A stretch of 64,000 bases of DNA, taken from positions 691,372 to 755,371 of the forward strand of contig JBMOPW010000034.1 of assembly GCA_049322915.1 (NCBI GenBank). Direction: 5' to 3'. The notes under the pieces were generated by a model. The model did not search any database. It had not been told where the DNA came from and saw only the letters and a program-made list of their open reading frames with translations. Source of the DNA: Candidatus Zhuqueibacterota bacterium (GTDB lineage Bacteria; Zhuqueibacterota; Zhuqueibacteria; Thermofontimicrobiales; Thermofontimicrobiaceae). This document shows, piece after piece, positions 51,629 through 64,000 of the stretch. The translations under genes and the position numbers were made by a program. The stretch's first letter is position 1, and each line of letters opens with the position of its first letter.

Positions 51629-51905
51629 AATTAAGCTACCGACGCACGCGATGCATCTGCGAACCCTGTTCTCGAACGATGCAATCAATCGATAGCAACG
51701 ATCACCGATGAAGCCAGTTACAACTGTCCTCCAATTAAAAAATGATCGGATGTTATTTTCCAAGTCACTCTGGTAACCTCATTTTTATGCGCAGTGCAAT
51801 CCGATCGCATCCAGCGGGCGCCATAGAAAATGGATGCAAAGGCAATGAATATTTTTCAACGGACAATTACTTACAGCCACTATAAATTAGAGCATCTAGA
51901 AACTA

Positions 51906-53330
51906 ATGAAATCTTTTGTGTATCTCAATCTTCGACCGACTCCAAAAAGAACCCATCATAAAAGTCATAAAAGAGCCGCGCACCGCGATAGACGCCATCG
52001 TCTCTCCCCTATTTTCAAATCGAAACTCATGAGAATTCATCGCCGCAACGCCTCTTTTAAAAACGACGTGCAAATGATTGTCCGTTCAATTGGAAAAGCG
52101 CTCGTGAAATTCGCACAGCGATTCGCTTCCATTTCAAATCAATTTTTTGTTTTTCTGATCACATTGGTCTGGACAATCCTCAAAGGTTTTTATGGCCTCA
52201 TCGCTTCACGGCGGCGCGCCATTATCATGCTTGCCGGCGCAGCAACAATTATCGGGATTGTCCTGGCGCTCGTTCTAATGTCAGCAAAACCGCCTCATTA
52301 CGCCATTGAACAAAGCTGGCTTGCGCTCAGTAAAACACGTCAGGCTGAGGCTCCATACTACACGAAAGATATGTATCTGGCCGCGTCTTTCAAATGGGAT
52401 GAACTGATTCGGGAGTGGCGCTATCAGAATAGCTTATGGTTTTTCAAGCGCGATTTCAGCAAACTTGTGAGCCTGGCTGAGGAAACAACCCGACTGGCAA
52501 ACCAGGCATCGGCCAAAGCTAATGAACTGCGTTCCTCGTTGAAAAACACAGCGCAGATTGAGACCACCCTGCTCATCGAAAAGATCGAGGAGATCAAGTC
52601 CAAATACGGCGACTTGCCAATGGACCGGTCGTTGCGGAATCGATTGAACGCCGGTGAATTGCTCGTTTTGGAAAGCCAGTCGGCTTTTAAACGCAACGAC
52701 TTCAAACAAGCGGTCGCCAAATTAAAAACAGCGGAATCCATGATCGGCCAGTCCGATACCGAATTGACCAGCATGGTCAGCGCGTATCTTGGCAGCATCA
52801 AAAAATGGCGCGGCTGGGTTCAGGAGACCATCAAATGGTCACTGGACAGTACGCGCGTGGCGATTGTTGTGGATAAAATGGCGCACGTCTGCCAGGTGTA
52901 TGACAGCGGAAAACTGAAGACCGAGTTCCCCATTGAGCTGGGCAGAAATTGGATCGGCCATAAACGGCAAAAAGGAGACAATGCAACCCCGGAAGGTCAG
53001 TATTTCATTCGAAAGAAAGTCGGGAACGGTCAGAGCAAATATTATAAAGCGCTGGTCATCAACTATCCCAATGAGAGAGACAGAGTTGAATTCGAAGCCG
53101 CGAAAAACCGGGGGGAACTGGCACCCAATGCCCAGATAGGCGGGCTGATTGAAATTCACGGCGAAGGCGCAAAAGGGACGAACTGGACCCAGGGCTGCAT
53201 TGCTCTCAGAAATGAAGACATGGACAAAATTTACAACATGGTTCCGGTCAACACACCGGTGACGATCGTTGGATCGATCAATGGATTAAAAGATATTTAC
53301 TCGAATCAAAAAAACCAAAACAACAAATAA
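51906..53330 (+). CDS. L,D-transpeptidase (YkuD family) with TM anchor and helical stalk
   Basis: GDNATPEG and IEIHG...WTQGCIAL catalytic motifs; true start may lie downstream. Confidence 0.88.
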   Translation: MKSFVYLNLRPTPKRTHHKSHKRAAHRDRRHRLSPIFKSKLMRIHRRNASFKNDVQMIVRSIGKALVKFAQRFASISNQFFVFLITLVWTILKGFYGLIASRRRAIIMLAGAATIIGIVLALVLMSAKPPHYAIEQSWLALSKTRQAEAPYYTKDMYLAASFKWDELIREWRYQNSLWFFKRDFSKLVSLAEETTRLANQASAKANELRSSLKNTAQIETTLLIEKIEEIKSKYGDLPMDRSLRNRLNAGELLVLESQSAFKRNDFKQAVAKLKTAESMIGQSDTELTSMVSAYLGSIKKWRGWVQETIKWSLDSTRVAIVVDKMAHVCQVYDSGKLKTEFPIELGRNWIGHKRQKGDNATPEGQYFIRKKVGNGQSKYYKALVINYPNERDRVEFEAAKNRGELAPNAQIGGLIEIHGEGAKGTNWTQGCIALRNEDMDKIYNMVPVNTPVTIVGSINGLKDIYSNQKNQNNK

Positions 53331-53351
53331 TTTTCCTATCGTGCCAAGAAA

Positions 53352-54164
53352 ATGATATTCAAAAAAGCAAAACCGCTCTATGCCGAAACGCCGCCGGACC
53401 ACCCTTCTGCCGGCGATGAAATTCGGCCTGATGAAAATCAGTCCGGTCAGGAAGCGCCGACAGTGACTTCCCCGGCGCGCAGGAATCGCGGCAAAATCTT
53501 CTTCGAAGCCATTAGCAAAGGCCTGATACTGGGTCTCATTCTTGCCTTCGCCCTGCTATTATCTGCGCCGAAGCTTTATGAAATGAAAGACGCCATTTTC
53601 CCGTTGCGAAAGATAGCCTCGGAATCGCCCGAAATCGAGCTGGCTCAGTTGACCAAAGAACTGAAAATACTCAACAAGAAAATCGATGAACTGGCGCGAC
53701 GCAAACAATTCATGACGCCGAGAGAGCCCTATCTGATCATCGATACCTCGGAAAATTTCATGACGCTGAAAAACCGCGATAAAATCCTGCACCAGGGAAT
53801 CTGTTCCACCGGGAGTTATACCTTGCTCAAAGCCGCTGACAACACAGAACAGTGGATTTTCAAAACACCGCGCGGCATGTTACGCGTGCAGAATAAAATC
53901 GTCGATCCGGTCTGGCGCATGCCCGACTGGGCATTCGTCGAGGAAGGACTGCCGGCGCCGGCGCCCTTTGCCCAGGAGCGATACGAATCCGGCGTTCTGG
54001 GCGATTATGCGCTGGATATCGGTCATGGTTATCTCATTCATGGGACGCTGTACCAGAGATTTCTGGGCCTGCCCGTCACCCACGGCTGCATCCGATTGGG
54101 CGATAAAGAACTGGAAATAGTCTATCGGTCTCTGCGGATCGGTTCCAAAGTCTATATTTATTAA
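53352..54164 (+). CDS. L,D-transpeptidase (YkuD family)
   Basis: TPRG and YLIHGT...VTHGCIRL motifs. Confidence 0.9.
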   Translation: MIFKKAKPLYAETPPDHPSAGDEIRPDENQSGQEAPTVTSPARRNRGKIFFEAISKGLILGLILAFALLLSAPKLYEMKDAIFPLRKIASESPEIELAQLTKELKILNKKIDELARRKQFMTPREPYLIIDTSENFMTLKNRDKILHQGICSTGSYTLLKAADNTEQWIFKTPRGMLRVQNKIVDPVWRMPDWAFVEEGLPAPAPFAQERYESGVLGDYALDIGHGYLIHGTLYQRFLGLPVTHGCIRLGDKELEIVYRSLRIGSKVYIY

Positions 54165-54174
54165 CAGGAATGAA

Positions 54175-55065
54175 ATGATGAAGGTTCTTCTCAAAGTCAT
54201 AAATAAACTGCTCACCAGTGCGCAACGACGCGTGGCGTTATTCTTTCTGTTTTTCAATGGTCATCGCTTCGCCCGATTGTATTTCTTCATTTTCCTGATT
54301 CTGCCCATCGCCATAGTCAGTTTCTTTCTCTTCGCCCTGCCCATCTACCTGAGTTCACGTACGCCGGCGCCGGAAAATCAACAGACGCCGCCCGGTGAAA
54401 ATCTGGTACTTTCAACCATTGGATTAAAAGATTCGGACGAGCTGAGGGGCATCATCGAACAAATGATCGCTCTGAAAATAAAAAAAGCCGATTTGCAAAA
54501 TCAACTCCTGATGGCTAAAAGCGATTCGGTTGGCCTGTCCATCGATCTGGTGGATAGCGTTGTGGCGCTGCAAATCCGCGGCGTGGATGTCCGCGAATGT
54601 AAAATTCAAAATTACTCGATGAGCCCGGCGTTCAAACACCTGAAATCCAATGGGAGTATCATTGACTGGCTTTCCAAACCCTTTGTGCTCGAACAACACT
54701 CCGCCACATTGCCGAAAATGCCCATCAAAATCAAGAGAGCGCCTAAAGATACTGTCGAAGCCAAATTGCTGAAAGATGAACCGGTCACGGTTGAAAAACC
54801 GGACGTCCAGATCAAACTCCAGTTCGACCGCAATCTTGTCGTGGAAATCAAGCAAGTGGAAGCGCCCACAGCCGCCGGAAGGCTGCGCAATTTTTACCAT
54901 TACATGCAGACCAAGTATGCCATGCTCAAAGAAATGATGCACTCCTATTCGAAATTGCAGCCCTACCAGGTCTCCCTGAGAATTGAGTTGAACCTTTCTC
55001 AGAGCGATTCAAAGGCGATTTATCGGGCACTGCCGCATCAGGCCATGCTGGCGCTGCGACTTTAA
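54175..55065 (+). CDS. Membrane-anchored protein, probable catalytically inactive YkuD-like paralog
   Basis: Same TM-coil-beta layout as 53352; LSIDLVDS and LSQSDSKAIYRAL match YkuD ends, but no H...C motif. Confidence 0.6.
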   Translation: MMKVLLKVINKLLTSAQRRVALFFLFFNGHRFARLYFFIFLILPIAIVSFFLFALPIYLSSRTPAPENQQTPPGENLVLSTIGLKDSDELRGIIEQMIALKIKKADLQNQLLMAKSDSVGLSIDLVDSVVALQIRGVDVRECKIQNYSMSPAFKHLKSNGSIIDWLSKPFVLEQHSATLPKMPIKIKRAPKDTVEAKLLKDEPVTVEKPDVQIKLQFDRNLVVEIKQVEAPTAAGRLRNFYHYMQTKYAMLKEMMHSYSKLQPYQVSLRIELNLSQSDSKAIYRALPHQAMLALRL

Positions 55066-55219
55066 AGCGCCGCCAATTTATTCCATGCCATTCTCCGGCA
55101 CACGAGCCACTGTTTCCCCGGCCGGTGTTCCAAAGATGTCCCTACGGTGAATTTCATCCTTCCAATGATGGGCACAATTTCCGCGGCGTCGCGAGTGACT
55201 CTCCGACAAAGGTTTTTTG

Positions 55220-55527
55220 GTGTCAGTCCGAAAATAGATATTATGATTGAAAACCATTGAAACGGTTTTTGATTAGTTCCCAATTTGCATCCACATCCCA
55301 ATAAATTGGCCTGCCAATTCAAAAAAAACATTGAACGAGCACCACGTTTTAACGGGGTGGCTTTGCAATCCCAATCGATTTTTTAAACCATTTTAACCCT
55401 ACTACGTCACATAGATTTTTTATCGTTGTATATTGTATTTTTGATAGATGAATAACTCAACATATTGTGATAAATTTACTAAATGACGTTGAAGGGTTAA
55501 TGGTCTCATTTATTTTCCGACAGACAC
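55220..55527. mobile_element. Family B-ended element with different interior
   Basis: GTGTCAGTCCGAAAA/TTTTCCGACAGACAC. Confidence 0.55.
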
Positions 55528-55551
55528 TTTTTCGAGTCAACCCACTGATTC

Positions 55552-55738
55552 AAGTCTGTCCGAAATCTGCTATTATTGACCTCACCCCAACCCTCTCCTA
55601 AAAGGAGAGGGAGAACAGATGTTCTCCTTCCAGGCGTAGTGCCCGTAGGGTAAGAAGGGGTTTAGGGGATGAGGTCTGACGGAATGAGGTTTGAAAATAT
55701 CACCCCAATAGCAAATTTAGGTGTTACCGGCCAGACAC
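55552..55738. mobile_element. MITE family B copy 3
   Basis: Homologous to 1621-1799. Confidence 0.8.
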
Positions 55739-55866
55739 TTTTTCGAGCCGTCCCAATGTTTAAAACGGAGTGTCTTTTAACCGCTATCTATTTCATTGAA
55801 ATTCCAATTCGATCACTGTGAATCGATAATAACAAAGTACCACGCCTGAAACGAGGAGGTTCTCAA

Positions 55867-56229
55867 ATGTCAATAATTAATGAACTAAGAAACTGGAAGA
55901 ATTCAGCTATTGCCGCACCAGCCATGAAATTTGTAAATGACATGCTCAACGACTATGGTGAAATGGTGGATCTCACCATCGATTCACTGAACAAAAACAT
56001 CAAGGTGGAAGTATTGCTCAAAGGGGAGAAAGAAACCATTTTTCTCACGATCGAGCATTACGAGGTTGTTCAGAGCGGCGATTCCCATTTCCTGAAATTC
56101 AACAATGTGTCGTGTACCCGTCAATGGATCGAAGCGATCATACAAAACATGGCCATCCCCCGGCTTGCGCCGACGAAGATGCTGAAAATCGATTCGCGCT
56201 ATGCCAGGCTGATTGACCTGCTCATTTAA
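55867..56229 (+). CDS. Hypothetical protein
   Basis: Strong SD GAGGAGG; 120-aa ORF. Confidence 0.75.
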   Translation: MSIINELRNWKNSAIAAPAMKFVNDMLNDYGEMVDLTIDSLNKNIKVEVLLKGEKETIFLTIEHYEVVQSGDSHFLKFNNVSCTRQWIEAIIQNMAIPRLAPTKMLKIDSRYARLIDLLI

Positions 56230-56243
56230 GCCCAAATAATGCA

Positions 56244-56400
56244 ATAGCCACAAAGACACGAAGTCACAAAGAAAAGATTAATAAAAATTTAAAATAGTGT
56301 ATAGATGAATTGCTTGTTTCATTTTTTTGTGAAAAAATAATAAAACAGCATTCTCATTTTTTCTTTGAGTCTCTTAGCGTCTTTGTGCCTTAGTGGCTAT
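56244..56400. repeat. Inverted-repeat element with CACAAAG/CACGAAG subrepeats
   Basis: ATAGCCACAAAGACACGAAG...CTTTGTGCCTTAGTGGCTAT. Confidence 0.6.
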
Positions 56401-56458
56401 AATTTTTTTCAAATGCATGATCCGGGTTATGTGTTACCCATAATTCTAAAATGAATTC

Positions 56459-56627
56459 GTGACGACTCAGGTGTTCAATAATTTGAAATGGAATGGAAGC
56501 CGCTGAGACGGCTAAATTCCTGAGTGCGCATCGACTATCACCATGTTGAAGCATGGCGCTGGTTCAAAATTGCGCCAAAACCGCGATTTATCGTGGCGCT
56601 TCCGGAACACGTGAGCTGAGTCGTTAC
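56459..56627. mobile_element. 169-bp IS66-like MITE with perfect 8-bp TSD
   Basis: TIR GTGACGACTCAG/CTGAGTCGTTAC; ATGAATTC at 56451-56458 and 56628-56635. Confidence 0.85.
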
Positions 56628-56670
56628 ATGAATTCGTTACTGTACCGTCATCATTTTGAGGTTAACGCAC

Positions 56671-57474
56671 ATGGAAAAACACGATCTCGATAGATTGGCG
56701 CGCGCGGTCTACTATCTCGAAAACCCAACCTGGACAGCGACCATTACTGACATCATCGGCATGCCGGTTGAATGGGCGATTCGAAAATTACCCGCAAAGG
56801 CCAATCAGATTATTTCCAACGCCACGTCAAAGGCCATCAGCAAGGCGGTCAAAGTGGCCGTTTTGACAATGAACGCCGAGCATCGGGGGGCGCCCAAAAA
56901 GTGGTGCCACAGAGGTGCTGTAGCAACATCCGGCGCCATCGGCGGCTTTTTTGGCCTGGCAGGCCTGACCGTGGAATTGCCCGCTTCCACCATTATCATG
57001 CTTCGGTCCATCGCCGATGTTGCACGGAGCCAGGGCGAGGACATTACAAAAGTTGATTCCCAGCTTCAATGCGTGAGCGTCTTTGCGCTGGGCAGCAAAT
57101 CCTGGGATGACGATGATGCATCTGAATCGAGCTATTACGCAATTCGGGCGGTGCTTGCAAAATTAATTTCAGAAGCCGGCAGCTACATCGCGGAAAAGGG
57201 ATTCGTCGAAGAAGGCGCGCCCATCATTGTAAAATTCATCGTCAGAATCGCTTCGAGGTTTCAGGGAATTATCTCCGAAAAGGTCGCTACAGAGAGTATC
57301 CCTGTGATTGGAGCATTGGGCGGCGCTTCGATCAATCTGCTTTTTATGAATCATTTCCAAAGAGTCGCCACCGGCCATTTCATCATACGGTCGCTGGAGC
57401 GTGCATACAGCGCCGAAGAGGTCAAAATCGAGTACAGCAGAATCGCCGCTAACCAACGCGCGCCGCGCAGTTGA
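56671..57474 (+). CDS. EcsC family protein
   Basis: GAIGGFFG, ELPASTIIMLRSIADVAR and GHFIIRSLER motifs. Confidence 0.85.
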   Translation: MEKHDLDRLARAVYYLENPTWTATITDIIGMPVEWAIRKLPAKANQIISNATSKAISKAVKVAVLTMNAEHRGAPKKWCHRGAVATSGAIGGFFGLAGLTVELPASTIIMLRSIADVARSQGEDITKVDSQLQCVSVFALGSKSWDDDDASESSYYAIRAVLAKLISEAGSYIAEKGFVEEGAPIIVKFIVRIASRFQGIISEKVATESIPVIGALGGASINLLFMNHFQRVATGHFIIRSLERAYSAEEVKIEYSRIAANQRAPRS

Positions 57475-57528
57475 CGGTGATCAAGCCAGACGCTCCATCC
57501 AATTGATTCGGCCTGCCGCGCCAAAAGC

Positions 57529-57688
57529 GCGCGACTGCTCCCCTCTTTTCGCTCGACTTGACGTTGCGATTACTGAAAAATCAACTTGATTTTCTGCGGC
57601 ATTTTACTATATTCATACTCATACACCCTGGCAGGATATTCGGTGTTCCATAGAAGAAACCGTCCTTCGGGATCACTTTCTTTTTTGA
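57529..57688 (+). repeat. L end copy 1 (160 bp; core + promoter + structured leader)
   Basis: About 96% identical by eye to 60552-60711; TTGATT-N16-TATATT at 57586-57613. Confidence 0.9.
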
Positions 57689-58037
57689 ACACAATGCGGT
57701 CGGTGTGATTCTCTGCTAAGCCATGAATGAGTCCATGCTAAAAAGGGGCTAATGCCCAAAAATCAAACGTAAATTTCTGTTCCCCGATTTAAAAGTCTGG
57801 GCTATTCAAGGTGTCTGACTTTTAACTTTTTCAATTGAATTTCTATGTCATTTATGAAGTGGAAAAAATATCACGACCAAAGTATAAAAGCCTTTGATGA
57901 CTTTTTAGAGTCGGCACATTATTAATTTCACAATAAGAAATAGTTATTCTGAATTGCTTCTACATTTTTTCAATTTATCTGGGATGTTATGCAGGTCTGT
58001 AAAATAACTTGTTGGACAAAACAAGGAAACAAATGCG

Positions 58038-60203
58038 TTGACAGATTTCACGAAAGAAATACCGCGACGGCTATTGGATATTGAGAACAAGAGTCGCTCA
58101 AACCTGTTCGCATGGCGTGGACAGTTTTCCCCACAACTTATCGAGACGCTAATTGAGGCGTACTGTCCGCCAAATGCCACAATACTCGACCCCTTTGCAG
58201 GAAGCGGAACAGTACTATACGAAGCCGCCAGGATGGGGCTATCAGCTTTCGGATTTGAACTAAACCCCTCCGCATGGACATTCAGTAAGCTTTATGAATT
58301 CGCTAACATCTCCCCTCTCTCTCGGGAAGCCGCAATACGCGAGCTTCGGGCCGAAGTATCCCGCGAGTTCCCGATCGTGCTCTTCTCGAAAAAGGAGCTT
58401 CCACCTGATGAGGTAGAGTCCCGAATTATCCGGATTGGGACGTCGATCAGTGACCATGCAAAGGTTCTATGCAATGCACTGGTGGTGTTGCTCGGCGTCT
58501 TTAACAACGCTATCTCCAGCGATCTAATACATAGCAAACTCATGGCGCTCGCTGCACTCGTCAGGGGACTTCCATATTCTGACGGACTGATCAAAGCCGA
58601 TTTGCAGGATGCTCGTTGCCTACCCCTTGAGGGCCACTCGATTGATTTCGTCGTCACTTCCCCTCCATACATAAACGTTTTCAACTACCACCAGAACTAT
58701 CGCCGTTCCGTCGAGATTCTTGGCTGGGATGTGCTCAGTGTTGCTCGCTCCGAGATCGGCTCTAACCGTGCGAACCGCGGGAACAGGTTCCTCACAGTAA
58801 TACAGTACTGCATCGACATGGCGAACGTACTGCAAGAGCTTGCGAGGGTTGTCCGCCCTGGCGGTCGCGTGGTTATAGTCGTAGGGTACGAATCAAGGGT
58901 GCTCGGTGTTCCCTTCTACAACGCGGAGATAGTTGAGGCGCTTTCCGAGCAGATTGGTATGTTTGACCTCGCGATTAGGCAGCAGCGCGTCTTTCAGAAC
59001 CGTTTTGGACAAGACATCCGCGAAGATATCCTTAACCTGACAAGACGATCCTACTCTAATGGATACGGTCTTTCTGAAAGAGTCGGCCGTAATGTGGCCT
59101 TAAATGCGTTGCAGCAAGGTTTTTCAACTGCCGCTCCTAAAAACAGGTCTCTGCTCGAAGAGGCCGTGGCAGCGGTCGAACGTACGGAGGGAACTCCGGT
59201 GTTTGACAGTAACGCCTATAGCACCTACCAAACCCGTAATTACGTGATGATGGTCAAAGAAGAAAAGGGAGACTACCCTATGAATGATAATAGCATACAT
59301 CTACCAGCACCTCATTTATCCAAGCTCCAGGCTCTGTTGAAGAATCCGCGATTGCCAGGGGCAGACAAACCACGCGTTGAAGAGGCGCTCGTTCACTACC
59401 GCGAATGGATCAAAGAACTCGAGTCTGTACGTGCAGGACGAAAGGGGGCTGTGCAGAAGCTTGTCGATGCAACGAACAAATACAAGGCTTTCATCGAACT
59501 TGAGTTTATCTTCGATAGCCCGGAGGATTTTCTCTACCGCCAGAAGGGACAGTTGAAACTCGATAATACCATCTTGGAGGAGTTTCTCCCGCAGTTGATA
59601 TTCCGGGGGCTCATCCTTCCTGTCGGCACGTACGAATTCGGACCGCAGAAGACCTTTGCAGGGCTGAGCTTCACTTCAGGCCTGGGCAATACAGGACAAG
59701 GGGGACAGGCGAGTCTGAGGACAAAGGACCAAGACTTCGTCCTCGGGAAGCGCCTATTCATGATGACATCTTTCGACAGAGAGTTTCGTGATGCTGAGCG
59801 CCTGGAAGCGCACGTGGGTTATATATGCGCTGAATTTAAGACCAATCTGGACAAGACCATGTTCCAGGAAGCAGTGGCAACCAGCAGAGACCTCAAGATT
59901 GCGGTTCCCGCTTCCCTGTATTTCCTTGTATGCGAGTTCCTTGACATGGCACCAGTGTCAATAACATCGACCCATATCGACGATGTTCTGATCGTGCGCA
60001 AGGCCAAACGGATGAACTCAAATGTCCGTCAGGAGTACCGCACTGCGCTTGACCGAAAAGCACATCGCAGCGAGTATGTTGAGTTCCTGGATGATTCCAA
60101 GTACCATGCGGACGTTTTCCAGCGCATGATTGACAAGATACAGGTGATGGTGGACGACACAGATCCCACTGCAGGGAAGGTTCTAAGCCGAGGGTACTTC
60201 TGA
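58038..60203 (+). CDS. Fused amino-methyltransferase (SPPY, likely m4C) + Bpu10I-family restriction endonuclease
   Basis: ILDPFAGSGT and VTSPPY; C-terminal YRQKGQLKLDNTILEEFL and AEFKTNLDKTMFQEA. Confidence 0.85.
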   Translation: MTDFTKEIPRRLLDIENKSRSNLFAWRGQFSPQLIETLIEAYCPPNATILDPFAGSGTVLYEAARMGLSAFGFELNPSAWTFSKLYEFANISPLSREAAIRELRAEVSREFPIVLFSKKELPPDEVESRIIRIGTSISDHAKVLCNALVVLLGVFNNAISSDLIHSKLMALAALVRGLPYSDGLIKADLQDARCLPLEGHSIDFVVTSPPYINVFNYHQNYRRSVEILGWDVLSVARSEIGSNRANRGNRFLTVIQYCIDMANVLQELARVVRPGGRVVIVVGYESRVLGVPFYNAEIVEALSEQIGMFDLAIRQQRVFQNRFGQDIREDILNLTRRSYSNGYGLSERVGRNVALNALQQGFSTAAPKNRSLLEEAVAAVERTEGTPVFDSNAYSTYQTRNYVMMVKEEKGDYPMNDNSIHLPAPHLSKLQALLKNPRLPGADKPRVEEALVHYREWIKELESVRAGRKGAVQKLVDATNKYKAFIELEFIFDSPEDFLYRQKGQLKLDNTILEEFLPQLIFRGLILPVGTYEFGPQKTFAGLSFTSGLGNTGQGGQASLRTKDQDFVLGKRLFMMTSFDREFRDAERLEAHVGYICAEFKTNLDKTMFQEAVATSRDLKIAVPASLYFLVCEFLDMAPVSITSTHIDDVLIVRKAKRMNSNVRQEYRTALDRKAHRSEYVEFLDDSKYHADVFQRMIDKIQVMVDDTDPTAGKVLSRGYF

Positions 60204-60216
60204 AAACAACTGCCTG

Positions 60217-60558
60217 ATCGGTTAAGCTGGAGATTTTCTCTCCTCGCTCACCATATCACCTTGCATCCCGAAACTTTGGGACAGTGCGTTTTCCGCCCGA
60301 GGCGATTTCAGCGCCGAAATCACAGCGGATGAAAGTTAATCAGGAGATCTCGGATAGAAACTAAACCCTGTTCGTTCGTTGTTGCAAGGCTGGCGGATAC
60401 GCAGTCGCCGATCTGTGACGGCTCTGGCCAGAGATAATCCTCCGCATTCGAAATGAGCAATGCCCCTCCTTGATGTCGCGGCGCCGAAGATCCGCCATCT
60501 TTTTGCGGGATTCAGACATCAGCCATTTCCCTGAACGTTTGACGACTATGAGCGCGAC
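60217..60558 (-). ncRNA. R end copy 1: 342-nt ORF-less group II intron-like RNA
   Basis: Minus strand begins GUCGCGC and ends with D5-like (CGC triad, 2-nt bulge) and D6-like (bulged A, ...ACCGAU) helices; about 94% identical to 63188-63529. Confidence 0.65.
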
Positions 60559-60711
60559 TGATCCCCTCTTTTCGCTCGACTTGACGTTGCGATTACTGAA
60601 AATTTAACTTGATTTTCTGCGGCATTTTACTATATTCATACTCATACACCCCGGCAGGATATTCGCTGTTCCATAGAAGAAACCGTCCTTCAGGATCACT
60701 TTCTTTTTTGA
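60552..60711 (+). repeat. L end copy 2
   Basis: Direct repeat of 57529-57688, abutting R copy 1 through the core GCGCGACTGATCC. Confidence 0.9.
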
Positions 60712-60852
60712 TGGTACACGGTCGGTATAATATCTTGAAGCATGCGTTGCTGTAACATTCAACGCAATGAATTTATGATTGTTCGGGGATCCAATGCAGT
60801 AACTCTCTAATCACTTGTTATACTGAATATTTCATTATTTAATTAAAGTTTT

Positions 60853-61842
60853 ATGTTTACCTATTTTAAAAAATGTATATTTTGTTTTAACGCTCTACCA
60901 GAAACTCCAACTGGCGATGGAGAACACGTTATTCCTAAAAATATTTATGGATTTTGGCGTGTGTATGATATTTGCGATTCCTGTAGACAATATTTTGGTG
61001 ACAAAATCGACCAATTATCAATTAAGAATGCATGGATTTTAAAAGCACTTCATCAATTGGATATTCCCGAATATGAAAAGTATAGTGAAAATTTACCATA
61101 TGTAGGCAAAGATACAATTGACGGCAAGCCTGTTGAAATGATAAGAAAAAACAAAAAATATAAAAATAAAGTTCGTCAAATTGATGATAAATTTTTTGAA
61201 TGTTCTGAAGATGATTGGAAACATATTGGTCAAGAATGGATTAGATCCACTAATAAAAGTAATATTGACGATGATGTACTTAATAATGAAATTAGAAAGT
61301 TAAATCAGAATTACGATACGGCTAAACTTGGTGAAATTGTTGAGTCTGATAAATTAAATGTAAAAATACGAAAAAGACAAGTGAAAGATATCAAATTAGC
61401 AATTGAAAAATTACCACCAATTACCCCTTTAATTGCAAAAATTGCATCATTTTTTTTAATCTATGCATTACCTCCAAGAATAATAAGTAATTTACTTGAG
61501 ATTGAATCACTTGTTAATCATGCAAGATATGATACAAAAATAAGAGAGTATTTTATAAATTGGTGCCCACTTTTAATTAAAGAAGAATATCAAAAAAGAC
61601 ATACAATTAGAATGCATAATTCTGACCACTTGTTAGTTTTAGATATATCACTGTTTGGATATCCTAATTGGCGAATCTTTTTACATTGTAAGCAAAAGAT
61701 TAAGTTTGATCCATTCGATGCAATAGAATATGATACATTAATTTTTATTCTAGATTTTGAAAATCCCGATAATAAACGAAAAATCATAGGTTTTAAAGCT
61801 ATAAATGACAAAGATTATAAATTTTTTAATGCGCAAATTTAA
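60853..61842 (+). CDS. HNH endonuclease domain protein (AT-rich, cassette-like)
   Basis: CIFC...GEHVIPKNIYG...ICDSC zinc-HNH N-terminus. Confidence 0.8.
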   Translation: MFTYFKKCIFCFNALPETPTGDGEHVIPKNIYGFWRVYDICDSCRQYFGDKIDQLSIKNAWILKALHQLDIPEYEKYSENLPYVGKDTIDGKPVEMIRKNKKYKNKVRQIDDKFFECSEDDWKHIGQEWIRSTNKSNIDDDVLNNEIRKLNQNYDTAKLGEIVESDKLNVKIRKRQVKDIKLAIEKLPPITPLIAKIASFFLIYALPPRIISNLLEIESLVNHARYDTKIREYFINWCPLLIKEEYQKRHTIRMHNSDHLLVLDISLFGYPNWRIFLHCKQKIKFDPFDAIEYDTLIFILDFENPDNKRKIIGFKAINDKDYKFFNAQI

Positions 61843-61846
61843 AAAA

Positions 61847-61972
61847 GTATAACATTTCAATTAGCATGAAAAACCGCGGATGATGAAATCCAGAATTTTG
61901 AAAGATTATGTAGTTCATCTTTTTAATTATAATTCAGCGAAGCTGCTTTGCAAGTTACACAAGGCGTAAAAA
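61847..61972 (+). other. Degenerate attC-like site
   Basis: R'' GTATAAC just after the HNH stop is the exact reverse complement of GTTATAC at 60817; imperfect long-range pairing to the 3' arm; R' reads GTAAAAA. Confidence 0.5.
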
Positions 61973-62065
61973 ATATTAAAGAATGAAATATTATAAATAC
62001 TATCAAGGACAATGTAATATATTGTATTATTAGATGATCCGCTCGAAAGGAGTTGATGATGCTTT

Positions 62066-63133
62066 ATGAAAACTTCAAAGATATTCATTTCCATCATCAT
62101 ATTTTCAGTAGTTAATTGCACTCCAATGATATACAAAGTTTTACCATTAATTGAAAATAATCTTAATTCAGAAATTTTATTTTTTGAAGGAAATGAATTA
62201 ATTATTTCAACTGGTGAAGATTCTGATTTATTAATTTATGGTATTCACAAAGGTGAAGATCTAATATTTCATATCTTTATTAAAAATAAGTCGAATGAAA
62301 AAATAAATCTTTTTCCGGAAAGATTTCATGTAAAAGGTATGGATAAAAGACAAAAAAAATATGATCTGCATGTATATGATCCAGATTTATTTTTAGCTAA
62401 ATTGAGAAACGAACATGCTTTCTCAATGTTTTTAAGCGCCTTAGCAAGTGGAATTGATGCATACAATTCTGCAAAAACAACATCTTCCACTCATTTTTAT
62501 TTAAACAATGGTACAGCTGGCCATGTCACATCTGAAACTTATGATAACTCCAAGCGATCACAAATAATGAACGAGAATATTGATCGCTTAAAAGAAACTG
62601 ATAACCAATTTGAACAAAATTTAGGCTATATTTCCCAAAGACTATTAAAAAGAAATACCCTTTATCCTGGGCAATCTTTGGAAGGTAACATAATTATTGG
62701 ATTGGATATTCATGATAGATATAATACGACCAACACTCACAAGGTAAAATATATTGACTTGACAGTACCATTTGGAAAAGATGAGCATAGATTCAAATTT
62801 TTAATTGCTAAACTTGGTGATAAATTATTAGAAGAAAGATATATAGAAAATTATCGAGAACACCAAATAAAACAAAATAATCTTTTAAGAATCAGGAGTA
62901 TTAAAAATAATTATTTGCTAATCTATAAACCAGAGTCCTTAGATCTTAAGATTGATCAAGAATTTGGGTTAGTAAGATTTACTGATCCAAAACAACCTGA
63001 AATCGGTCTTTTTTCTATTGGTAGCGCTACGGTAGTAAAAGTCATTCATGAAAAAGTAATTTTAAAATATGATCTTTTGAATCATATTAATGAATTAACG
63101 CAGGATGACTTCATTCAATTCACAAACAATTGA
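62066..63133 (+). CDS. Hypothetical lipoprotein (AT-rich)
   Basis: Lipobox-like VVNC; LLKRNTLYPGQSLEG motif. Confidence 0.75.
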   Translation: MKTSKIFISIIIFSVVNCTPMIYKVLPLIENNLNSEILFFEGNELIISTGEDSDLLIYGIHKGEDLIFHIFIKNKSNEKINLFPERFHVKGMDKRQKKYDLHVYDPDLFLAKLRNEHAFSMFLSALASGIDAYNSAKTTSSTHFYLNNGTAGHVTSETYDNSKRSQIMNENIDRLKETDNQFEQNLGYISQRLLKRNTLYPGQSLEGNIIIGLDIHDRYNTTNTHKVKYIDLTVPFGKDEHRFKFLIAKLGDKLLEERYIENYREHQIKQNNLLRIRSIKNNYLLIYKPESLDLKIDQEFGLVRFTDPKQPEIGLFSIGSATVVKVIHEKVILKYDLLNHINELTQDDFIQFTNN

Positions 63134-63187
63134 TGTCATTTTAGTTAAAACTAATTGATATACACAAATGAAGTTTTCGCTGGCTTG

Positions 63188-63529
63188 ATCGGTTAAGCTG
63201 GAGATTTTCTCTCCTCGCTCACCATATCACCCTGCATCCCGAAGCTTTGGGACAGTGCGTTTTCCGCCCGAGGCGATTTCAGCGCCGAAATCACAGCGGA
63301 TGAAAGTCAATTCGGAGTTAGCGGATAGAAACTAAACCCTGTTCTTTCGTTGTTTCAAAGCTGGCGGATATGCAGTCGCCGACCTGTGACGGCTCTGGCC
63401 AGAGATAATCCTCCACATTCGAAATGAGCAATGCCCCTCCTTGATGTCGCGGCGCCGAAGATCCGCCATCTTTTTGCGGGATTCAGACATCAGCCATTGT
63501 CCTGAACGTTAGACCGCGATGGGCGCGAC
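63188..63529 (-). ncRNA. R end copy 2: 342-nt ORF-less group II intron-like RNA
   Basis: Same length as copy 1; D5 ACGCACUG-UCCC-loop-GGGA-UG-CAGGGUGA; D6 GGUGAGC..GCUU-A-ACC-GAU. Confidence 0.7.
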
Positions 63530-63736
63530 TGATCCTTCGCACGCTCCGGACAAAGACATTTGTTTGATCATCCCGATAATGGCCCGACGCGACTCAGTTC
63601 TGAGCTGGGTCAATAAAACAGCCAGTGATAAATTCAAATAAAAAGTGTGCAGTGATCAAAGCCTCACATTGGACAATTACTTTGTGTGCTTCGTACCCTT
63701 TTACATCCGATGCTCGCATTTATAGGAGGAAGATGA

Positions 63737-64000
63737 TTGAATGAAACGATTGAAATCAAGCCGATCGGCGTAGTATCCTCACCGGTGAAGGAAGCGGTCG
63801 ATGAGAACTGGGTGAATGTGATTTCAATGGTTGTTCTCCTTCAGGAATATGATGCACACGAACGGAGCGCCTATTCGGGAACACAAGTTCCATTCCATTT
63901 AACGCGATGGATACACATCCAGCGCGATCCGGTTTTGGAAATTAATCCGGAGTGCGATGCCTTAATGCATCGCATGTCCACCAAAAGCCGGATCAAGGCG
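63737..64000 (+). pseudogene. TrmO/TsaA-like N-terminal fragment (open to window end)
   Basis: AGGAGG SD + TTG; IKPIGVVSSPVKEAVDENW resembles the TsaA/TrmO N-terminus; similarity appears lost after about 40 aa. Confidence 0.5.

Follow-up and report, generated by a model that had tools for sequence, protein, structure and literature searches.

Integrons provide a promoter-bearing platform to which promoterless foreign genes are joined at a fixed point, and 'empty' cassettes exist among them; their arrays are marked by lineage-specific inter-cassette repeats and by cargo of varied composition. Streptococcal tandem accretion, with its cis-mobilizable elements (CIMEs), and the Xer-dependent arrays of integrative mobile elements exploiting Xer (IMEX) consist of stacked units that share a short direct repeat and have no recombinase gene of their own. 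Here we describe two defence-type gene cassettes standing in tandem near the end of a 64,000-nt stretch of DNA from Candidatus Zhuqueibacterota bacterium (assembly GCA_049322915.1, contig JBMOPW010000034.1, positions 691,372 to 755,371; G000:C34:691372-755371 in our numbering, where C stands before the number of a contig). We call the whole stretch the window; its base 64000 is also the end of the contig. It is well supported that each cassette has a reused promoter-leader module, L, on its left and a terminator-like 3′ module, R, on its right. As to origin, our preferred reading is that two adjacent defence-gene expression cassettes were assembled from lineage-specific modules and stacked by recombination at the modules they share. 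We hold it tentatively, at a probability of about 0.42.

Base-by-base comparison gives the order core-L1-cargo 1-R1-core-L2-cargo 2-R2-core, all on the forward strand. The two L copies (57529-57688 and 60552-60711), compared with a repeat finder and base by base, are 160 nt long and 96% identical with 6 mismatches and 0 gaps, while the R copies (60217-60558 and 63188-63529) span 342 bp with 21 substitutions and 0 indels; the full extent of R homology is 353 nt at 93.8% (60212-60564 versus 63183-63535). What we call the core is a 13-mer, GCGCGACTG(A/C)TCC, found at 57529-57541 (with C at its position 10), at 60552-60564, where the R homology ends and the L homology starts with these same letters, and at 63523-63535, after which unique right-flank sequence begins. 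The overlap of the R and L homologies is exactly these 13 nt. The core-to-core lengths are 3023 and 2971 bp. All these positions, lengths and substitution counts had been given by a sequence-only reading of the window and are reproduced here. Its description of two stacked cassette-like units, each with a promoter-bearing left module, and of unrelated defence-type cargoes in units of nearly equal length has held up as well.

The outer joints are seen also in an independently built assembly. A public run, X1, which is probably the source sample (95% of sampled words are present in it), yielded Logan contigs that bridge the left flank, core and L1 (in a piece ending at 57568) as well as R2, core and right flank (in a piece covering 63469-63954). 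In X1 the left flank has a depth of 66 and the right flank one of 62; cargo 1 reaches 70.5 and cargo 2 45.8, and the pieces of R common to both units stand at 90-101. Since each cargo stands at about flank depth, the two are not alternative alleles, the depths of which would sum to that of the flanks; cargoes near flank depth together with R at about double depth place both units, each as a single copy, between these flanks. No circle-closing or unit-skipping joint is present among the X1 contig joints listed, and rare forms could be missing from contigs. None of the region is found in runs X2 and X3 of the same study, which is no evidence of absence.

L as delimited above is the first 160 nt of a non-coding module of 280-490 nt that is present in at least 12 copies in this genome, as found by BLAST, nhmmer and a sequence-only covariance model. 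Besides the two in the window, relatives lie on C13, C28, C19 (two), C12, C3, C4 (two), C14 and C7, with partial copies on C36 and C16. Pairwise identity in the family is 75 to 97%, and 12 copies stand before unrelated genes. Both L1 and L2 hold a sigma-70-like match, TTGATT-16-TATATT (57586-57613 and 60609-60636). Across the family the hexamers read TTGAYT and then TATATT or TAAATT; both are kept in the C13 and C28 copies, and the 16-nt spacer was counted in L1/L2, C13 and C28. Downstream of the promoter follow a strongly conserved stretch, a weak hairpin with a T-run, further leader and a terminal ACTTGTT box. In L1 the 160 nt comprise the upstream region, the promoter match, the start of the conserved leader and the hairpin with its T-run, and the rest of the module (57689-58013) ends with ACTTGTT at 58007-58013; the L2 module (60552-60819) ends with the same box at 60813-60819. 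By its motifs L is a predicted promoter for whatever gene is placed behind it. A small RNA or an attenuator within L was considered; the predicted folds differ between copies. A conserved GGCAGGA...TTCG box was also noticed, and a sigma-54 reading of it was considered by eye only.

The 3′ boundary of the module is fixed. Twelve copies include it: ACTTGTT is exact in nine of these, CTTG is present in 11, and past ACTTGTT similarity among the copies ends completely. Ten of the copies allow a judgement on the next gene: a co-oriented open reading frame (ORF) of at least 60 aa begins 10-83 nt past the junction in nine of them and 176 nt past it in the tenth (C12). The remaining 2 of the 12 run into contig ends. 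In the two window cassettes the cargo start codons lie 24 to 33 nt past ACTTGTT. The genes thus placed differ from copy to copy. L1 is followed by a methyltransferase-Bpu10I endonuclease fusion and L2 by an HNH_5 protein. The C7 copy precedes an oligonucleotide cyclase of a cyclic-oligonucleotide-based antiphage signalling system (CBASS; 202 bits, cut-off 200) with a SLATT_4 effector, the C14 copy a TIR_2 protein and a T5orf172 protein, the C12 copy an AAA_15/AAA_21 ATPase of OLD/ABC type, and the C13 copy a DUF1801 protein and a PDDEXK_3 protein. One C19 copy is followed by an IS91-family transposase, and a C4 copy has the same sequence as C19 until it reaches its contig end; the second C4 copy precedes a HEAT-repeat protein, and the C28 copy and the second C19 copy precede unknowns, with a YfbU-domain gene also on C28. 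The CBASS pair (G000:C7:31094-32534; locus L101, 2094-3515, minus strand) begins 19 nt past its L-family junction. Near-identical non-coding promoter regions before non-homologous genes of one genome are what defines a putative mobile promoter, and the L family is of this kind.

Cargo 1 (58038-60203, from a predicted start codon) encodes 721 aa. It matches Pfam RE_Bpu10I (E 2e-91) and N6_N4_Mtase and is called MTase_II by PADLOC; the Pfam search of the window covered its larger ORFs between 44 and 64 kb. Cargo 2 consists of two genes. The first, 2a (60853-61842, 329 aa), is an HNH_5-family endonuclease-like protein: its Pfam match (E 7e-6) is below the family cut-off, and 27 of its 30 Atlas feature hits are HNH_5 clusters (score 0.96). 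The second, 2b (62066-63133, 355 aa), gave no family match and looks like a lipoprotein, with a predicted N-terminal signal peptide followed by a cysteine. GC content is 28% in cargo 2, 43% in L and 52% in R against 49% in the genome, a contrast by which the modules appear native and the cargo foreign.

R (R1 60212-60551, R2 63183-63522, both exclusive of the core) is non-coding, has hairpins at its start and begins 9 nt past the stop codon of cargo 1 and 50 nt past that of cargo 2. A terminator-like site with a hairpin was called by a scan at 63180-63201. Two relatives of the first ∼100-165 nt of R exist in the genome, both 3′ of unrelated genes: one at C16:19159-19310, ∼290 nt behind a PIN-domain gene, the other at C11:2332-2424, ∼17 nt past the stop codon that closes a 589-aa ORF. 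Hairpins occupy the same places in both with different letters, and RNAalifold finds 4 of 16 pairs changed on both sides. R may act as a terminator-like closure of the cassette at its 3′ side. Between the two window copies the substitutions are spread unevenly: 83 nt (60445-60527) are identical, and 7 of the 21 changes are concentrated in the 24 nt that adjoin the core. L occurs without R at 10 other places of the genome, and the start of R occurs without L at the two just named; within this genome L and R are paired in the window only. The proposal that L and R are the two private ends of one element family is thereby not supported, and of the proposal that L is a promoter-bearing element end the promoter match stands while the private end does not. 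No inverted repeat between the ends of L, of R or of the whole unit was detected by a repeat finder and inspection, so the units do not qualify as miniature inverted-repeat transposable elements (MITEs).

A third module, E, of ∼170 nt and rich in hairpins, begins with GTTCC and a 9-bp perfect palindrome and ends with GCGATTA. It is found at nine places: C12 (46355-46531), C3 (twice), C19, C36, C28, C14, C15 and C33. In 5 of the 12 L copies E follows the L junction, at 0 (C12), 0 (C3), 1445 (C14), 1934 (C28) and 5326 nt (C19); at C12 and C3, therefore, E directly adjoins the junction and there is no cargo at all. A start codon lies ∼7-45 nt past E in 7 of 9 aligned copies, where flanks were read by inspection; the two left out are one C3 copy that stops at a contig end and the C15 copy, the flank of which was unread. 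L and E thus bracket 0-5.3 kb of cargo at five loci, and since E follows the L junction in 5 of 12 copies, module-bracketed variable cargo, 'empty' units and tandem units are a recurring design of this genome. On C14 (G000:C14:535825-538206, locus L100) an L module, the TIR_2 and T5orf172 genes and E are followed by a 227-aa ORF 7 nt past E. On C19 (G000:C19:91412-94181, locus L105) two L modules stand in tandem, 1251 bp apart, and the second leads into the IS91-family transposase, a response regulator, two more genes and E. The long form of L on C19 and its relative, which lies at the beginning of contig C3, both start with GTTC. Relatedness of E to R was considered and rejected, their similarity being no better than that of shuffled controls.

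How does this compare with the systems named at the outset? This genome has no IntI-type integrase, its inter-cassette repeats are 170-500 bp long and appear by eye to lack attC-type R″/R′ core sites, each cassette has its own promoter, and the units are scattered rather than collected into one array; in all this it differs from an integron. A search by eye for the R″/R′ pair (RYYYAAC...GTTRRRY) gave GTTAGAC in R2 and GTTTGAC in R1 with no inverse partner, and the ends of E do not fit. The window shares with CIME and IMEX arrays that its units are stacked, with a short direct repeat at every junction and no recombinase gene. It differs from them in that no cognate integrase is found in the genome, no dif-like site is present at the junctions, and the repeat is part of a dispersed module family rather than of the end of a tRNA or other gene. 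Two further systems come close. Putative mobile promoters are described by Nijveen, Matus-Garcia and van Passel as highly similar non-coding promoters before unrelated genes of one genome (PMC3575422). The L family shows this pattern, also with no known moving mechanism, and differs from those described there by its nucleotide-exact 3′ junction, its long conserved leader, its bias to defence and mobile cargo and its pairing with the 3′ modules R and E. In ISCR1 a 232-bp oriIS region has two outward promoters, and in the variable region past it a co-oriented gene is found in 946 of 1127 copies (PMC6218425). L resembles this oriIS/POUT block in being a conserved non-coding block of a few hundred base pairs with a predicted outward promoter and an exact boundary, behind which stand variable, mostly co-oriented and horizontally acquired genes, and IS91-family transposases are present in this genome too. 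Unlike oriIS of ISCR1, L blocks are not preceded by a transposase gene, their cargo is defence and not resistance, they occur at no fewer than 12 places and sometimes in tandem, and Y2-driven mobility is here only putative. From these nearest systems the present one differs by the combination of a nucleotide-exact junction, a long shared leader, an almost entirely defence or mobile cargo and paired 3′ modules.

Under the preferred reading L would supply transcription to horizontally acquired genes, and two cassette versions sharing L and R would probably have undergone accretion by one unit length, the joint being formed at a 13-nt stretch of the upstream region of the L family. The most likely route would be unequal exchange between cassette alleles or paralogues via homology or short homology. 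No dedicated recombinase would be needed for the stacking, and the conserved modules would serve as portable homology by which cargo can be swapped and units stacked. We hold this route, too, with some reserve, and favour it because of the mosaic identity of the L copies, the position of the core inside L sequence and a genome that has no integrase. The mosaic is seen as 96% identity of L1 and L2 over the 160 nt and only ∼65% past the T-run, where L1 is closer to the C28 copy than to L2, a pattern such as recombination tracts leave. As to the core, the local alignment of L1 with the C13 copy begins at 57505 and so takes in 24 nt on its left side; in this flank (57505-57528, forward strand) 18 of 24 positions match, as do 9 of 13 in the core, and there is no R on C13. 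This homologous stretch before the C13 copy argues that the 13-mer is ordinary upstream sequence of the L family and was not made by an insertion; the peculiarity of the junction is rather that the right end of R2 carries these 13 nt of L sequence. By a hand estimate chance alone gives ∼10 pairs with 12 of 13 matching positions in any 6 kb, so that a 13-nt joint alone needs no site-specific enzyme and can serve short-homology exchange. The 9-mer GCGCGACTG itself occurs 104 times in the genome. A reading of the core as half of a repetitive extragenic palindrome (REP)-like sequence was tried and rejected, since the palindrome is present only in E copies; the likeness of the core to the start of E may be due to chance.

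Several observations weigh against this reading. Unequal exchange leaves the exactness of the L junction across unrelated cargoes unexplained, and this exactness points to some site-specific joining step at ACTTGTT. A 13-nt sequence lying in phase at all three junctions is also the classic footprint of site-specific integration. The allelic cassette versions are assumed and not seen, as no other strain or relative with L, R or an empty site was found. The predicted promoter of L agrees with the consensus at 9 of 12 positions, and the leader hairpin with its T-run is weak, with a predicted fold that differs between copies. Finally, the middle joint, R1-L2, is not among the 8 of 83 Logan pieces listed, and one X1 contig carries L1-type letters at the L2 positions 60603 and 60605, so that the phasing of variants between the L copies differs between assemblies and is somewhat uncertain.

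In a bolder reading the genome would have a dispersed, integron-like gene-capture system that works without an integrase: incoming defence genes would be joined to a portable promoter-leader module at one exact position after ACTTGTT and closed by the hairpin-rich R or E, the cassettes would be copied, emptied and stacked, possibly by an IS91-type or an unrecognised enzyme, and the shared leader would put them under common control. We consider it unlikely, if by no means far-fetched.

Enzymes that might act on the modules were searched for genome-wide (the genome is 96% complete). The tyrosine recombinase family PF00589 gave two hits, XerD (358.8 bits, over the cut-off) and an XerC-like protein, and the integron-integrase model scored 141 and 123 bits against a cut-off of 265. 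One large serine recombinase is present as a 520-aa frame on C2; there are two reverse transcriptases (RTs), four Y1 transposases, two IS91-family Y2 transposases (Y2_Tnp; on C19 and C22) and no IS110-type transposase. The C19 enzyme matches NF033538 (IS91 family transposase) with 392 bits. None of the Tyr/Ser recombinase, IS110, RT or Y1/Y2 families is represented in the window (DDE families were not searched), in agreement with the sequence-only reading, which had seen no recombinase or RT there: every genome-wide hit for Tyr/Ser recombinases and RTs lies elsewhere.

The two Y2 transposases open another possibility, that the modules are ends of non-autonomous derivatives of IS91/ISCR-type rolling-circle transposons on whose cargo these enzymes act in trans. 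According to PMC13181058, the IS91 family makes no target duplication and targets CTTG or GTTC beside oriIS, the terIS palindrome adjoins a GTTC or CTCG cleavage site, a mini-element with ends of 89 and 82 bp is mobile with transposase in trans, and failed termination takes neighbouring DNA along. L would then be an oriIS-like end with outward promoters abutting a CTTG target, and E, the 5′ extension of the C19 and C3 copies and R2 would be terIS-like, with GTTC or CTTG and a hairpin; tandem units would arise when the tetranucleotide target beside an inserted end is reused or when termination fails. CTTG does stand at 11 of the 12 L junctions, E begins with GTTCC and its palindrome, the long L form begins with GTTC, R2 starts with CTTG and a hairpin, and the C19 transposase gene lies 83 nt past an L junction, with a second copy of the arrangement at the C4 contig end. 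The tetranucleotide argument was, however, made post hoc, and neither of the two tetranucleotides occurs in the 13-nt core. R1 reads CCTG, and a motif of this kind is missing from the R-like pieces on C16 and C11. No transposase gene is found 5′ of any L module, where an oriIS would place one, and the sequence 3′ of the C19 transposase gene is unlike L, R and E. The 9 nt between cargo 1 and R are too few for cargo 1 to have a conserved end of its own, and no complete two-ended element was seen in more than one copy. A search of 125 class genomes for homologues of the transposase gave a match in 23 (a tally that includes this genome and the unpublished G120), and none of the 24 loci fetched around these homologues carries an L module. 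We regard transposition of this type as a rather improbable source of the units.

One of the two routes named by the sequence-only reading was that of non-autonomous integrative cassettes which a site-specific recombinase, supplied in trans, inserts in tandem at the 13-bp core, with the three junctions as attL, an attP-like joint and attR; this would be accretion such as CIMEs or Xer-dependent elements show. The 13-mer does stand at all three joints in that order, R and L flank it with conserved sequence, as would be expected of arm regions, the units differ little in length, and the genome encodes the large serine recombinase on C2 and the XerC/XerD pair. But the core and the stretch to its left belong to the common sequence of the L family and have a homologue on C13, where R is absent, and R is least conserved in the 24 nt beside the core, which contain 7 of the 21 substitutions. 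The only tyrosine recombinases are XerD and the XerC-like protein, phage-type and integron integrases are lacking in the genome, and no dif-like ATAA-N6-TTAT is present on either strand in 57400-63700; a stricter dif-like match occurs in the genome only on C7. No autonomous R-core-L copy was found in this 96% complete genome. The shared 13-mer thus stands from that proposal, its att interpretation is weakened on these three counts, and we think insertion of this kind quite unlikely.

It is also conceivable that the tandem is an artefact, in which cargoes that are alternative alleles, or that belong elsewhere, were chained by the assembler via shared L and R near a contig end. The contig breaks off in a repeat no more than 6.5 kb from the region, the 45 contigs of the genome were recovered from a metagenome, and the mixed L1-type and L2-type letters and the middle joint with no direct view among the Logan pieces listed would fit as well. 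The depths speak against it: 70.5 and 45.8 for the cargoes versus 62-66 for the flanks, the lower value being that of the 28% GC cargo, with R k-mers at about two copies. Both outer joints are bridged in the independent assembly, and nowhere else in the genome is L with its first 160 nt or a full-length R found, so that two L...R units must fit between the flanks. An artefact of this kind is very improbable; assembly error could affect only the order of the two units.

The weakest proposal, that R is a group II intron remnant and that the units were moved by intron RT machinery, has in its favour two RT genes (C34:430973 and C16:9990, the latter ∼9 kb from the R-like piece) and is contradicted by the absence of any Rfam match in the whole window at gathering thresholds, or in the 6.6 kb of 57400-64000 at E up to 10 except for two unrelated chance-level hits (E 7), by R folding no better than shuffled sequence (z-scores 0.08 and –0.05 for the two strands), by stop-to-stop frames of the R1-L2 block that match no Pfam (7 frames) or PHROG (5 frames) family, with one chance-level match at E 0.19, by the lack of an RVT_1 match in the window, and by units that have a promoter and sense-oriented genes and no intron-like boundaries.

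The modules appear confined to this lineage in the material searched. BLAST of the R-L block against 13 genomes of the family and 124 genomes of the class gave only one 31-nt match, and the L model gave only weak hits (E 6e-4 to 0.01) in 20 other genomes of the order; the hit in G005 was rejected, as it shares only promoter-like bases. An exact-word scan with an R 22-mer had 0 hits in viral and metagenome collections. A conserved L 19-mer had 0 viral, 13 genome and 11 metagenome hits, all matching in the seed only, and these are due to chance, since ∼17 are expected by chance in the genome collection. Neither an empty site nor a second L...R-bracketed cargo was found in the relatives and the genome examined, and the relatives have no orthologous locus. 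A BLASTN survey of L and R, which the sequence-only reading had proposed, returned in-genome relatives of each module and no joint bracketing of other cargo. That reading would have been given up if L and R occurred independently elsewhere and bracketed no other cargo, or if relatives had no empty site; the independent occurrence of L and of the start of R amounts to half of this.

Some neighbouring features deserve mention. A dispersed MITE-like repeat of ∼190 bp lies inside the L1 leader (57723-57920). BLAST matches to it number 61 and are spread over 24 contigs, with identities of 72-91% and, in 29 cases, a length of 150 nt or more; the family is a high-copy one, distinct from L and R. The contig end is held by a 150-bp repeat (63851-64000), outside the cassettes, which has matches on C17, C38 and 16 contigs in all; the unit is tandemly repeated on C17 and C38 and its ∼70-bp core is scattered over 16 contigs. 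An ORF starting at 63737 runs into this repeat, and a Logan contig joint there 'goes back 142'. To the left of the cassettes, one X1 Logan contig skips 27 nt at 56570-56598, upstream of an EcsC-family gene, which may be a strain variant or a repeat. The EcsC-family gene and the first YkuD-domain gene of the region 51900-64000 have no counterpart in the genome of the same genus with the queries used. EcsC orthologues are present in 10 of 13 other genomes of the family, and their neighbours in the five loci examined match nothing in the window. The whole contig end (51900-64000) may be an accessory region.

How acquired defence genes are installed and switched on is largely unknown outside integrons and prophages. 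In the genome studied here no fewer than eight defence or mobile cargoes, unrelated to one another, are joined to one promoter-leader module at an identical nucleotide position, and recurring 3′ modules bracket them. If the modules turn out not to be mobile or recombinogenic by design, they still represent a clear case of promoter reuse and of recombination between repeats, useful for the annotation of such genomes. The interest would be greater if a dedicated joining mechanism or a common regulation proved true. If the modules are mobile or recombinogenic by design, they would constitute a simple, integrase-free cassette system and, in a poorly known phylum, a co-regulated defence repertoire that includes restriction-modification, HNH, CBASS, TIR and ATPase genes.

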